The position numbers and the translations under genes are program-made. The notes under the pieces are model-generated. The model was not told the DNA's origin. It did no database searches and saw nothing but the letters and a program-made list of their open reading frames with translations. Positions 52,074 to 57,808 of a DNA stretch of 64,000 bases are shown piece by piece; the stretch's first letter is position 1, and each line of letters begins with the position of its first letter. The DNA is from a phage, in sequence record PZ452606.1. One strand, 5' to 3'.

Positions 52074-52544
52074 CTAGCGATAAAAACCAAATTTACGATT
52101 AGTTTCAATGATCTTTCTTTCTTCTTCGGACATTCTCCATCGTAGTCCAACATCAAAATGAGCCCAGACCATCTTAACAAATGCATTTATATCTTTAATA
52201 TCTTCAATAATGAATGTTTTACTTTTAGAAGGTTGACTCGCTAATTTAACTTTATCGTCTTCAAACATGTCAAAAAGACCATATTCATGAGCTCTTTTAT
52301 AGCCTTTAATAGTTAAAGCTTCAGAAGAAGAAAATGGTGAATCTGTATTCTGCAAAATATCTTCAGTATGCTTTATAATTAGAATAACATTTTCTGGATA
52401 TTTTCTTTCTTTTATATCTTTAATTAAAATATCCGGATTTTCTGCTAAAGGAATAATTAACGAGCATTTTTTATCAAGTGTATTTACTGATTTACCTTCT
52501 TTAGACATAAATTCTATTGAATATAATTTTGCTACTTCAATCAT
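52074..52544 (-). CDS. hypothetical protein
   Basis: 156 aa ORF. Confidence 0.5.
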
Positions 52545-52701: not shown

Positions 52702-52901
52702 GATTTATCCCCATAGATATCTCTCATCAATTTAAGTGCTGAGCGTTCTAATTTCTTTTCTTTCTCAGCACTAATCATTGATTTCATCCATTCTTCCGAT
52801 TCGTTCTGCATTTCTTTATTTGCCTGTTCAACCCAACCATCGTCAATATACATTGAGTTTGGTCTACTGAACCATTCAAGTATCTTCTTCAGAACTTTCA
52901 T
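52698..52901 (-). CDS. hypothetical protein
   Basis: 67 aa ORF. Confidence 0.45.
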
Positions 52902-53373
52902 TTGTTTTACCTAAAACAATAGTAGGAGCATCGTCAAATTCATGAATTTTTAGCAATTTTGGATTTAAATTATTCCATACATAATAAATAAAGTATGATA
53001 AAGCATCTTCACTCGCAATTATAAATTTATTTCCTTCATTTATTTTCCAGTCATATACTGAATCGTACGAATAAAAAGATAAAGGATTACCATTATATTG
53101 TTCTGCGCTAACATTAATGTATTCGGATTTAGTAAATGCTTCAATTGCTCTAAACGGACTATTTGGCACAGTTTCAATAATTCCGATCTTTTTAAGTTTT
53201 ATTTCAACATCTTCTGGAACTGGCATTGAAACGAAATTTTCTACGAGATACATAGGGTTACAATAACCCTTATCAATCACTACGGCTACAGTAATTGGAA
53301 CATCTTTAGCAAACGACATGCTATTACTGCTAATATACATTTCAAACAAAATCGCTTCCATAATTTTCCTCAA
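52876..53373 (-). CDS. hypothetical protein
   Basis: 165 aa; 4-nt overlap with upstream gene. Confidence 0.5.
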
Positions 53374-53864
53374 TCACAAGATGTAGATGAACAACCAGAA
53401 TCACAAGAACTTCCACATGAATCACCAGTCCAAGAACTAACAGCCGTGACTGTTATAATAGGAGCGGTATCGATATAGCTTTCTGAACGTCTTGAATCTA
53501 AATGTTCTTTTAACTTTTTAGAATTCAATGGAAGCGCACCTGCACCAACATTACCAGCTTTTTCTGGTTGACGAATAATTTCTTCCATCGTATCGTCGCT
53601 CGCATAAACATTAGTATCATATGAATCAGAACTAGACTGTGTATTAGATGATGTAGTAGGTGTTGACCAGCGCCAAGGATTTTTATAATATTCTTGGGCT
53701 TCTTCATAAGTCATAGTAACTGCTTCTACTGTTCCATCTCCCATATAAACATACTCAACTACAGTTAAAGGAAGGTAGTCATTTGAAATAGGAACTACAC
53801 CTTCCCCAGGAGTCGTAGAGAAAAAATCTGTAAAGAAACTTTTAAACCAATTAAAGATAAACAT
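53370..53864 (-). CDS. hypothetical Ser/Thr- and Cys-rich protein
   Basis: 164 aa; hydrophobic N-terminus, S/T-rich centre, C-terminal [15 protein letters not shown]. Confidence 0.5.
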
Positions 53865-54070
53865 TACAAAAAGCCTCTCTTAAATTCGACTTGCTTCTCG
53901 CCATAATCATATCGAATCTCTGCATTAAATTCGACAGAACCATCTGCGTACATCATAAATGAATGCACAACAACTTCTGTAGACCATGGCTGTAGTTCAT
54001 ATTTCTTCATTACATGTCGTGAAATGATAATATCTAAATCTTCATTTGGTTTAATCCAGCGATTTAACAT
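53864..54070 (-). CDS. hypothetical protein
   Basis: 68 aa; early promoter upstream. Confidence 0.5.
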   Translation of the reverse strand: MLNRWIKPNEDLDIIISRHVMKKYELQPWSTEVVVHSFMMYADGSVEFNAEIRYDYGEKQVEFKRGFL

Positions 54071-54096: not shown

Positions 54097-54125
54097 ATTA
54101 TACCATACTCATTTTGGAAAGTAAA
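54097..54125 (-). promoter_or_regulatory. early (sigma70) promoter
   Basis: TTTACT-17-TATAAT. Confidence 0.55.
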
Positions 54126-54136
54126 CCATTTAAATG

Positions 54137-54160
54137 AAAAAAGGACTCCCGAAGGAGTCC
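54137..54160 (-). terminator. rho-independent terminator after soc
   Basis: GGACTCC-TTCG-GGAGTCC then U-tract; identical to the hairpin at 253-277. Confidence 0.65.
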
Positions 54161-54166
54161 TTGAAT

Positions 54167-54428: not shown

Positions 54429-54638
54429 TTAAATTACATGATTATTTATAATAAATTCTCGCGGAACGTTAAAATACCCAATTTTAGTTAATATAACAAT
54501 ATCGCCGTTAATAATTACCGGAGAATAATCGGCTGGAGCATTAAATTTCCAATGGGCTCTAATATTATATCCATCAGAACCAAATGCTCGAATAGCCGGT
54601 CTCCCGGCTTTTTGCCATGCATAAAAATCAAATTTCAT
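54429..54638 (-). CDS. hypothetical protein
   Basis: 69 aa ORF between soc and 56. Confidence 0.45.
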   Translation of the reverse strand: MKFDFYAWQKAGRPAIRAFGSDGYNIRAHWKFNAPADYSPVIINGDIVILTKIGYFNVPREFIINNHVI

Positions 54639-54687
54639 TTTGAATGCTCTATAATTAATTTTAAGGCTTCTTCACACACCAACTTGT

Positions 54688-54840
54688 CTAATGGTATATG
54701 CCCACAGTTTTAATTGTGTAAGCTTTGTGGAGCTGATTAGATAAGAGCTCGTATGTGAGCTCTTTGTCATAATCTTTAAATAGCTGGTCAATACGTTTCT
54801 TGCGGGCTTTCTTAAGCTGGCGTTTATTTAAACGAGCCAT
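54688..54840 (-). CDS. small basic hypothetical protein
   Basis: 50 aa read by eye (MARLNKRQLKKARKKR...); AGAGG SD; ATG overlaps gene 56 stop. Confidence 0.4.
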   Translation of the reverse strand: MARLNKRQLKKARKKRIDQLFKDYDKELTYELLSNQLHKAYTIKTVGIYH

Positions 54841-55358
54841 TAATAGCCTCTGTCTTGACGAGCGAAGTTTTCAGCATTTTTCAGATAATAAAGTTTAAAT
54901 ATTTCTTCAGCTGACATTCCAAGAGCAATGAATTTATTCATGAAAAAGTGAAATTGATCAATCAGTTCAAATTTAATTTCAAGTTGATCTTCAGGAGATA
55001 AATCTTGAATTTTCTTGGATTGCATTTCAGAATAACGTTTCTTCCAAGGTTTCCATACAGCAGAAGCTTCTTTTTCACCATTACTCATACCACCAAGAGA
55101 AGTATATAGCTCGCGAGTTTCGTCTGCGATATAATCGTCTTGGTTTCGCAGCCAAGCAAGAACTTCTCCTGCAGTTTCAAGTGAATCAGGATGACGATTT
55201 GTTTCTGGTTTATCATTAGCCAAACGAATCTGTAAATGCCGCTGCATATCAAGCATAACCTGCAGTGGGTCAATATTGTGCATAATATTCTCAGCATATG
55301 CACGATTTGCTTTATCAACACCTTCGATCAAATGAGCACATTCATTAAAGTAAGCCAT
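54840..55358 (-). CDS. 56: dCTP pyrophosphatase gp56 (MazG-like)
   Basis: ATG at 55358 (MAYFNECAHLIEG) with AAGGAAA SD; the track extension is upstream of the likely start. Confidence 0.85.
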   Translation of the reverse strand: MAYFNECAHLIEGVDKANRAYAENIMHNIDPLQVMLDMQRHLQIRLANDKPETNRHPDSLETAGEVLAWLRNQDDYIADETRELYTSLGGMSNGEKEASAVWKPWKKRYSEMQSKKIQDLSPEDQLEIKFELIDQFHFFMNKFIALGMSAEEIFKLYYLKNAENFARQDRGY

Positions 55359-55429
55359 TATTTTTCCTTTCAATTCATGGGTTAGTAGATTAATTATACA
55401 ATAAATATATAAAGCAATAAGGAGGACAT

Positions 55430-55630
55430 ATGATACAAAAATTAATGGCACTTGTTAATGCCATAAAAGGTAATAAGAAACGTATAGCTTTTACTATTTC
55501 TGCTATGGTAGGAATTTTACTCTGGAACTTTATTTTATCACCTGTTGCAATTGCACATGGTATTAATATTCCAGTAGTTACTCTTGATACATTCGTAGAT
55601 TTAGCATTTGCTTTAGTTGGGTTAATTTAA
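55430..55630 (+). CDS. small hydrophobic protein, convergent with flanking genes
   Basis: 66 aa with AAGGAGG SD 4 nt before ATG; only plus-strand ORF in this minus-strand block. Confidence 0.35.
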   Translation: MIQKLMALVNAIKGNKKRIAFTISAMVGILLWNFILSPVAIAHGINIPVVTLDTFVDLAFALVGLI

Positions 55631-56822: not shown

Positions 56823-56868
56823 ATTAACCTCTATTCATAAAAGCATTAAAAATTTGGTCATCAATAGA
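56820..56868. repeat. 49-nt direct repeat, copy A
   Basis: 48/49 identical to 57178-57226. Confidence 0.8.
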
Positions 56869-57180
56869 TGGAATAGCAACCTTTTCGGCATCATTTAGCA
56901 AATCATTAATTTCATCAGATAGCATAACACATGTGCCTTTATTTCCTGTAATTGTTACTGCGCAATTACGAACGTTTTCTTTATCAAATTTTAGGTTAAT
57001 ATTTTCGTAGTGAAAATCCTTTAATGCCGAATATATCTTTAAAATGAAATTGTCTTTTACTACAATAAACCCAACTTCACTATTAAAACGTGGTTCATGG
57101 AAACTGTAATAAACCTTTTCATCTATGAAATCGTATGAAATTTTTTCCATTTTTAAATATGAAAATTCAGAACTATACAT
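56824..57180 (-). CDS. hypothetical protein, truncated paralog of the 208-aa neighbour
   Basis: 118 aa; last 14 residues SIDDQIFNAFMNR identical to neighbour via a 49-nt repeat. Confidence 0.55.
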   Translation of the reverse strand: MYSSEFSYLKMEKISYDFIDEKVYYSFHEPRFNSEVGFIVVKDNFILKIYSALKDFHYENINLKFDKENVRNCAVTITGNKGTCVMLSDEINDLLNDAEKVAIPSIDDQIFNAFMNRG

Positions 57181-57226
57181 ATTAATCTCTATTCATAAAA
57201 GCATTAAAAATTTGGTCATCAATAGA
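57178..57226. repeat. 49-nt direct repeat, copy B
   Basis: 48/49 identical to 56820-56868. Confidence 0.8.
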
Positions 57227-57808
57227 AACATTTACTTTAGACTGTTTTTCAGATGGCAATTCATATCCACATATTACAATTTTATGATCAATATCAAAAT
57301 ACACAGAAGCAATATGATTAATGATATTTTCAGTGAAGTCTAAATCGACATCAATATCTTTTTGACCACAGCCCAAAGGATAAATAATGCGAGTAATTCG
57401 ATTATCTTTAACAAATATTCCACCGACATACTCTGTACTGCGTTTAAAGTCTACACGCCGACGAAATGAAAAATATTCAGGCTCTTTATGAGCTCGGCTC
57501 ATAGGACACAACGAATAACTAGAATAAGAGATGTCAAATCCTACGCCTTCGATATGAGCCAAAGTGTCATGATTAAACCAATTATAATCGTACGCCAAAT
57601 CCATTAGATTATAATATGTAAAAGGCACCGGATTAACATCATTAGTCACAAGCATGTAATTAGCAACTGCTATAATTTCATTGTTTTTAACGAATACAAA
57701 CCGTGATTGATGCGAATGACCTGGACCCGCGTTTTCACGATTAATGATATAACACTGGGCACCTTTATATTTGTATGTATCTTTGCACTTGTGCATTTGA
57801 TAGAGCAT
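57182..57808 (-). CDS. hypothetical protein
   Basis: 208 aa; C-terminal half similar to the 118-aa ORF. Confidence 0.55.
   Translation of the reverse strand: MLYQMHKCKDTYKYKGAQCYIINRENAGPGHSHQSRFVFVKNNEIIAVANYMLVTNDVNPVPFTYYNLMDLAYDYNWFNHDTLAHIEGVGFDISYSSYSLCPMSRAHKEPEYFSFRRRVDFKRSTEYVGGIFVKDNRITRIIYPLGCGQKDIDVDLDFTENIINHIASVYFDIDHKIVICGYELPSEKQSKVNVSIDDQIFNAFMNRD

Follow-up and report, generated by a model that had tools for sequence, protein, structure and literature searches.

The mrh.1 locus

The stretch of phage DNA analysed here (64,000 nucleotides of sequence record PZ452606.1, referred to as the window) carries on its minus strand, at 53370..53864, an open reading frame (ORF) with an ATG start and a TGA stop. 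An initial annotation, made from the sequence alone, had described a Ser/Thr-rich protein of 164 aa with an aromatic N-terminus and C-terminal cysteines, and exactly this sequence was recovered in the ORF list of the window. There is hardly any doubt that the ORF is mrh.1 of a Tequatrovirus (T4-like phage), coding for a long form of T4 Mrh.1. In a profile scan the protein matches the Pfam family DUF7206 (PF23836) with 118.2 bits (cutoff 25.6, E = 3e-34), and it also matches PHROG 2031 ("unknown function", E = 2e-37). An identical translation product, gp152 of Shigella phage Sf24, carries the annotation "similar to phage T4 Mrh.1". A 1.7-kb region around the gene is matched by 513 phage records, nearly all of them from Tequatrovirus, the best being Shigella phage KRT47 (98.9%). 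T4 Mrh.1 (T4p027, UniProt P20706, 113 aa) is encoded by the same gene at the same position and has residues 1-85 and the four-Cys tail, (S/G)CSSTSCD, in nearly identical form.

The gene has thus already been catalogued (as T4 mrh.1, DUF7206 and PHROG 2031), identical proteins have been deposited, and it does not represent a new kind of system. No function had been assigned in the initial annotation, and none was gained by homology: DUF7206 is a domain family without known role, and a relationship to a characterised family was not found. In the searchable papers there is no main-text passage with biological content that names mrh.1, DUF7206, PF23836 or P20706, and mrh.1 goes unmentioned in papers on HIDEN-SEQ, on phage Tn-mutagenesis and on LSm folds. 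T4 is the best-studied large lytic phage, and about 130 of its genes are without a function.

The ORFs around mrh.1 in the window code for Dda helicase, ModA/ModB-like proteins, Soc, gp56, gp61 primase and gp41 helicase. The gene itself belongs to a conserved block of early genes, soc - mrh.2 - mrh.1 - mrh - srh - modA.4 - modA.3 - mod, and 22 related loci share the arrangement soc - (mrh.2) - mrh.1 - (mrh) - srh - modA.4 - modA.3. Most of these have an mrh.2 homologue 5' of mrh.1, and a gene of the Mrh family is found close to mrh.1 in 20 of the 22. Mosigvirus loci have kept mrh.1, while mrh proper is absent.

A conserved C-terminal two-thiol motif

All four cysteines of the window protein are located within its last 15 residues, at positions 150, 154, 158 and 163. 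By our own arithmetic, the chance that four random cysteines in 164 positions fall within a 14-residue span is about 0.0015. Six-frame translation of the window gives 143 ORFs that start with M and are 60 aa or longer; of these, only mrh.1 has three or more cysteines in the last 15 residues.

By word-indexed and exhaustive searches with hidden Markov models, about 126 DUF7206 clusters could be recovered, all of which are tagged PF23836. Those with a source name or a long contig all come from T4-like phages of enterobacteria. An exhaustive profile search of 1.84 billion representatives gave only 33 matches, mostly phage-sized small proteins of DUF7206; two very large proteins with E ~1e-4 were treated as spurious. 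Two further database entries are apparent artefacts: P0007 (141 aa), a supposed homologue of Mrh.1, looks like a frameshifted mrh.1, and P0028 (150 aa), from a 647-nt contig, combines an unrelated N-terminal sequence with the first 30 residues of Mrh.1.

Tails were compared over 122 full-length representatives of the family; truncated forms are rare (5 of 127). Every one of the 122 proteins ends in C-[D/N/E], 118 of them in CD, and Lys and Arg are absent from the last 20 residues throughout. Exactly two cysteines, one at -2 and the other between -8 and -12 from the end, are found in 112 representatives, while four cysteines occur in only three clusters, all T4-type. Of 249 cysteines, 222 are preceded by Ser and 224 are followed by Asp. 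The last 25 residues consist of 41% Ser, 14% Asp, 13% Gly, 8% Cys and 8% Tyr. The family thus shares a Ser/Asp/Gly/Tyr-rich tail that ends in ...S-C-D-x(5-9)-S-C-[D/N/E]-COOH. The window tail (residues 148-164, 53373..53423, minus strand) follows this motif, in a version with two additional, T4-lineage-specific cysteines at -15 and -7 from the end. T4-type tails have four Cys and no Tyr; the others have two Cys and, among the final 25 residues, a mean of about two Tyr, as in Mosigvirus, Gaprivervirus and Dhakavirus, where two Cys and two Tyr stand against the four Cys of the window. A hand alignment of the tails suggests that in the T4 type Cys has replaced Tyr at one position and Ser at another.

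Cys is encoded by TGT in some loci and by TGC in others, and Ser positions change between TCN and AGY codons. Because of this synonymous turnover, we take selection to act on the peptide rather than on a DNA repeat. We conclude that Mrh.1 carries a strictly C-terminal two-thiol tail which is under selection at the protein level, and that the "cysteine cluster" of the initial annotation is a lineage-specific elaboration of the motif S-C-D...S-C-D-COOH. The annotation had called for a check of the conservation of the cluster and had taken it for a metal-binding or disulfide-rich tail. The tail is real and selected, its final Cys-X is without exception among the full-length representatives, and thiol chemistry is the most natural reading of it, but the four-Cys cluster does not hold up as the conserved, functional unit. 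Attention thus moves from four clustered cysteines to a family-wide C-terminal two-thiol motif on a disordered protein.

Similar tails on other small proteins

A profile of the tail only, searched against 5.8 billion sequences, gave three borderline matches (E 0.2-1). Two of the three (P0132 and P0133, E 0.2-0.75) end in the same motif, ...SYDS..SCDSSS..CD-COOH, on unrelated N-termini. P0132 (77 aa; L028/L029, 151-384) is encoded on short metagenome contigs, has a zinc-ribbon-like CxC..CxxC N-terminus and ends in ...SSSYDSSSSCDSSSSSGCD. P0133 (58 aa; L026/L027, 4001-4177) is from Citrobacter phage Ci1 (OR515478), has a basic helix and ends in ...SYDSCDSSSPSCD. Its gene lies in a distant T4-like genome directly after a Dda-like helicase, beside an Alt-like ADP-ribosyltransferase and an ADP-ribosylglycohydrolase.

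These sequences are suggestive of a modular ...SCD...SCD-COOH tail. One may go further and speculate that the tail is a portable C-terminal effector module of T4-like phages, acting early in infection either as a thiol sink or trap, whose target might be a metal, an Fe-S cluster, a persulfide or a thiol enzyme of the host, or as a peptide that docks on the megadalton Mrh/ModA.3 assemblies encoded beside it, but we regard this as rather unlikely. If true, the module would be previously undescribed and would occur on DUF7206 and on at least two unrelated small proteins.

Architecture and predicted structure

The window protein contains 14.6% Ser and 11.0% Thr. Four parts are conserved in the family: an M-I-x-W-L-K-x-F-F helix, PGEGVVPIS, a GDG hairpin motif and the C-terminal end. 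The middle is variable and often basic. Residues K8, F15, P25, E37, Y40, G42, D43, G44 and E47 are either invariant or conserved to 90% or more. Both the N-terminal W/F-L-K..F motif and the hairpin motif E-Y-V-Y-M-G-D-G-x-x-E are present in the window protein.

Two AlphaFold2 (AF2) models of the window protein were computed, one from 27 and one from 116 sequences, with a mean predicted local distance difference test (pLDDT) score of 49.7 and 57.6, respectively. According to the latter, residues 2-15 form a helix, which together with the hydrophobic moment and the alignments defines an aromatic amphipathic N-terminal helix with the family motif (residues 1-16, 53817..53864). Strands 34-40 and 46-52 and a helix at 53-67 are predicted with pLDDT 75-87. 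This beta-hairpin with its near-invariant motif and the subsequent helix (residues 33-67, 53664..53768) would be the sole confidently folded part of Mrh.1, the model being mostly disordered otherwise. A weaker helix is predicted for residues 115-127, while pLDDT is below 50 for the Ser/Thr linker and for residues 132-162. That low-complexity linker (residues 67-90, 53595..53666), in which 13 of 24 residues are Ser or Thr, is found only in T4-type members and is predicted to be disordered. It is part of a T4-lineage insertion (approximately residues 50-85) which is absent in other genera. Residues 131-146 (53427..53474) form a short, beta-prone hydrophobic stretch.

A Foldseek comparison of the AF2 models with the PDB gave no match at E <=0.001, and with BFVD nothing beyond the protein itself, from Yersinia phage fPS-90, and weak matches to uncharacterised proteins of T4-like phages, which presumably are family members. 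The DUF7206 profile found no solved relative among PDB sequences, the one match being a capsid protein at chance level (E = 0.059), and no PDB entry was found for Mrh or Mrh.2. A scan of Mrh.1 against PADLOC-DB gave no defence or anti-defence family at E <=1. A carrier-protein-like GDS phosphopantetheine site was considered and rejected, as distant members do not conserve the motif and a helical bundle is lacking.

The N-terminus had been called hydrophobic, and a membrane-associated or secreted protein had been suggested. Export signals were judged by Kyte-Doolittle hydropathy and by inspection of the N-terminal residues. The highest 19-residue mean anywhere in the protein is only 0.84, so that the N-terminus is better described as aromatic and amphipathic, with no membrane-spanning segment. 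Secretion or integration into the membrane found no backing: there is no signal-peptide-like h-region, no lipobox, no transmembrane segment and no N-terminal Cys, and the charged residues K8 and D13 lie within the first 16 positions. Residues 131-146 were dismissed as an integral membrane anchor, since the stretch is too short for a transmembrane helix and T4 lacks it.

The N-terminal 11-mers of most relatives are strongly amphipathic and cationic, with a hydrophobic moment (muH) of 0.6-0.8 and a HeliQuest-type D of 0.9-1.7. The helix of the window protein is more aromatic than those of its relatives (muH 0.44-0.61, net charge z of 0 to +1, D 0.42-0.91). In most relatives the short terminal helix, with its high hydrophobic moment and net positive charge, resembles the N-terminus of MreB and the C-termini of MinD and FtsA, which served as references for membrane-targeting helices. 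The window helix differs from these in being longer, very aromatic and net neutral. Secretion is unsupported, and judging from these sequence properties a peripheral association with the membrane via the helix is possible.

A rare long form

In comparison to the window, a segment of 162 nt (54 codons, approximately residues 87-140; 53444..53605, minus strand) is missing in frame from T4 (113 aa), RB18 (110 aa), T2 and most other Tequatroviruses. The flanks of the segment are 98-99% identical between the window and the short-form phages. At 99% identity or more, the segment was found in just 9 of 50,697 phage records (Sf22, Sf24, KRT47, fPS-90, G2540-3 and similar). The next best matches are to mrh.1 of Mosig-, Gapriver- and Dhakaviruses, with 78-85% nucleotide identity. 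This level fits old orthology rather than recent transfer, and because of this comparison we consider it most likely that the T4 short form arose by an in-frame deletion and not that the window phage acquired a recent insertion.

The segment codes for a degenerate second hairpin motif, which in BLASTP aligns with the Mosigvirus hairpin motif VYVGDGMMEEVIRQPEK, for the basic segment AGNVG...KKLKEHL..RR of the family and for most of the IDTxPI hydrophobic stretch; T4 Mrh.1 consequently lacks the degenerate hairpin, the basic helix and the IDTAPI stretch of the window protein. When the intact and the degenerate hairpin motif of the window protein were compared alone, BLASTP returned no alignment. 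The degenerate motif may be a second copy of the hairpin, a reading for which the alternative alignment to Mosigvirus Mrh.1 is the basis.

The Mrh.1 proteins of Mosigvirus, Gaprivervirus and Dhakavirus (IME08, JS98, Bp7, VR7) have the canonical DUF7206 architecture. With the window protein they share the W-L-K-x-F-F helix, the hairpin, the basic segment, the hydrophobic stretch and the SCD end, and over residues 86-146 of the latter the identity is about 70%. They do not have the T4-type insertion with its extra helix and the Ser/Thr-rich linker.

Transcription unit and expression

The initial annotation had described mrh.1 as tightly packed in an operon and therefore as likely expressed. The packing was borne out, as the mrh.1 ATG overlaps the stop codon of mrh.2 (TAATG) and mrh begins 8 nt past the mrh.1 stop. 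A Shine-Dalgarno sequence, AAGAGAGG (53874..53881), is located 9 nt 5' of the mrh.1 start codon. The preceding gene mrh.2 (53864..54070, 68 aa, PHROG 1873) is of unknown function, and the gene that follows in the unit, mrh (52876..53361), codes for a protein of 161 aa (PF24070, T4_MRH); all features of the unit are on the minus strand. Its 5' boundary is an intrinsic terminator hairpin after soc, with a 9-bp stem and a T-run (54141..54162). The hairpin is perfectly symmetrical and GC-rich (AAGGACTCC-TTCG-GGAGTCCTT) and scores as a terminator on both strands; the T-run accompanies only its minus-strand copy. An early-promoter-like site, GGTTTACT-N17-TGGTATAAT (TTTACT-17-TATAAT with the TG of an extended -10; 54097..54125), is found 27 nt 5' of the mrh.2 start, and we take it to resemble the T4 early promoter consensus. 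Since the terminator is followed by this site and by a GAGGAG Shine-Dalgarno sequence of mrh.2, it seems that mrh.2, mrh.1, mrh and the later genes probably form one early unit.

Expression is likewise supported by the upstream early promoter and the translational coupling, and for T4 the mrh.1 RNA has been classed as "early" (PMC9697503, supplement). In the same time-resolved proteomics study, Mrh.2, Mrh and Srh were detected, while the T4 Mrh.1 protein has the class "NA" (undetected). Trypsin would cut T4 Mrh.1 (L030, 701-1042) into peptides of 5, 3, 1, 52, 4 and 48 residues. Because peptides of these lengths are not usable, the protein is expected to escape detection; the "NA" class is probably a technical blind spot and provides no evidence against translation.

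In a genome-wide CRISPRi-ART screen, which blocks translation, T4 mrh.1 obtained a score of 0.79 (p = 0.069) and was classed as "Semi-Fit", while mrh.2, mrh and srh were all "Not Fit" (PMC11879866, supplement). It is one of five purely unknown genes for which that screen indicates a possible contribution to fitness (PMC11879866).

Possible function of Mrh.1

Our preferred reading, which we put forward tentatively and with considerable doubt, is that Mrh.1 holds out a flexible, thiol-bearing tail (a metal ligand or a redox dithiol) from an N-terminal anchor. The protein would be made early in the cytoplasm and would be mostly disordered. The short amphipathic helix and the small GDG-hairpin/helix module would serve as the anchor, docking either to a partner protein or to the membrane from its inner side, and the variable disordered linker would join it to the tail. 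With its Ser/Asp/Gly/Tyr-rich sequence devoid of Lys and Arg, the tail would present two thiols (S-C-D...S-C-D-COOH), or four in the T4 lineage, as the effector end: a thiolate arm serving as ligand to a soft metal ion or an Fe-S centre or, alternatively, cycling between dithiol and disulfide. Ligation might bridge two chains in the two-Cys members and occur within one chain in the four-Cys T4 lineage. The effect on infection would be modest and non-essential. Flexible, disordered C-terminal arms that are rich in small residues and have a Cys pair near the C-terminus are found in the R1 protein of class Ia ribonucleotide reductase, in MsrA and in MerA. For the Mrh.1 tail this is an analogy only, as Mrh.1, unlike these thiol enzymes, has no catalytic domain and shows no sequence or fold similarity to them.

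Several observations weigh against this reading. With only two conserved cysteines, a monomer could not make up a classical Cys4 site. Neither the C-x3-C spacing of the window nor the C-x5-9-C spacing found elsewhere matches a known metal-binding signature; a Cys4 zinc ribbon or a metallothionein would have at least four family-conserved Cys with CxxC or CxC/CC, and the arrangement in the window is C-x3-C-x3-C-x4-C. The N-terminal helix of the window protein has a net charge of 0 and reaches D values of only 0.4-0.9. T4 tolerates the loss of the whole central segment, so that the laboratory lineage, at least, can do without this part. The knockdown screen gave a marginal fitness signal, and the failure of time-resolved proteomics to see T4 Mrh.1 is a further, weak point.

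A tail that functions without metal is the alternative that survives best, although we consider it unlikely. Here the acidic, Ser-rich tail would be a decoy or short linear motif which occupies the active site or a groove of a hypothetical host enzyme and so titrates or traps it; the enzyme would be one that normally handles flexible Cys-bearing tails, with thioredoxin/glutaredoxin clients or sulfur-transfer enzymes as examples. That the tail is strictly C-terminal, disordered, modular and biased in charge would be in accordance with such a role, and two neighbouring genes, srh and srd, carry annotations as host sigma factor decoys. It also counts in favour of a decoy that flexible C-terminal Cys pairs shuttle reducing equivalents, for example in class Ia ribonucleotide reductase. 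The marginal effect of mrh.1 on fitness weighs against it.

Self-assembly is distinctly less probable. It would be driven by the beta-prone stretch IDTTPIVVAAAVSSW together with the S/Y/G/D-rich tail and lead to oligomers or condensates; the cysteines would cross-link the oligomers, or these would dock on large Mrh/ModA.3 assemblies encoded next door. The S/D/G/Y-rich composition of the tail, the conservation of the short hydrophobic stretch and the vicinity of an Mrh-family gene in nearly all related loci fit this idea, as does a report that recombinant T4 Mrh forms a megadalton complex (PMC8076793). However, the hydrophobic stretch is absent from T4 itself, and a tail of only about 20 residues is short for this purpose.

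We see very little room for an exported or integral membrane protein with disulfides or a bound metal in a tail that lies outside the cytoplasm. Exported proteins typically have Cys pairs, and the N-terminus is aromatic and was perceived as hydrophobic. The C-x(n)-C-X-COOH end bears a superficial likeness to colicin V with its C-terminal disulfide loop, and in its richness in Ser the tail recalls class IIb microcins. The low hydropathy maximum and the interruption of the first 16 residues by K8 and D13 contradict export, however, and the consensus MIxWLKNFFKTKPGEG would place three Lys inside the would-be h-region. Neither a lipobox nor a double-glycine leader is present, and the related loci examined have no exporter gene in the vicinity.

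Still less can be said for a precursor of a ribosomally synthesised and post-translationally modified peptide (RiPP), in which an N-terminal leader would precede a Ser/Thr/Cys-rich core that is enzymatically cross-linked (lanthionine or thiazole type). Mrh.1 has in common with the precursors of lanthipeptides and class II microcins a C-terminal peptide of core-like composition, and residues 144-160 match the FxLD lanthipeptide precursor family TIGR04363 (NCBIfam) with 15.3 bits (E = 0.015). This match is below the 30-bit cutoff, is probably compositional and does not recur in P0006 and P0033, the members from Mosigvirus and from metagenomes that were scanned. Unlike those precursors, Mrh.1 is accompanied by neither a modifying enzyme nor an exporter and has no leader-cleavage motif: no gene for a dehydratase, cyclase, YcaO or radical-SAM protein was found among the four nearest window ORFs, which were profile-scanned, or in the related loci examined. 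The scanned neighbours are Mrh-family proteins or unknown small proteins.

Least probable of all is that mrh.1 is a dispensable, decaying ORF with a tail produced by mere low-complexity drift: even though mrh.1 tolerates large in-frame deletions, as the T4 form shows, proteomics has not seen the protein and the region is non-essential, 126 clusters from several genera have kept the motif at the start, the GDG hairpin and the C-terminus in its exact form, with synonymous codon turnover, truncated forms are rare and mrh.1 is "Semi-Fit" upon knockdown.

Other observations in the window

ModA.3 (52074..52544, minus strand) and Mrh are paralogues, both matching PF24070 (T4_MRH) and PHROG 1234, and in Mosigvirus loci the ModA.3-type copy is the sole Mrh paralogue that has been retained.

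The interval between soc and gene 56 (54429..55451, minus strand) is a variable cassette site. In the window it contains two small ORFs of the kind that RB18 labels soc.2 or "similar to...", and it does not carry the segF homing endonuclease which T4 has there. The interval between genes 56 and 61 is devoid of a dam gene, unlike in Sf24. Between gp56 and gp61 the plus strand carries a very hydrophobic ORF of 66 aa (55430..55630), which looks like a small membrane protein; the plus-strand ORF of RB18 at this place is annotated as "similar to RB69ORF029w".

Two adjacent ORFs on the minus strand, 56824..57180 (118 aa) and 57182..57808 (208 aa), have the same terminal peptide, SIDDQIFNAFMNR[G/D], and this shared end suggests a common C-terminal module or a partial duplication.

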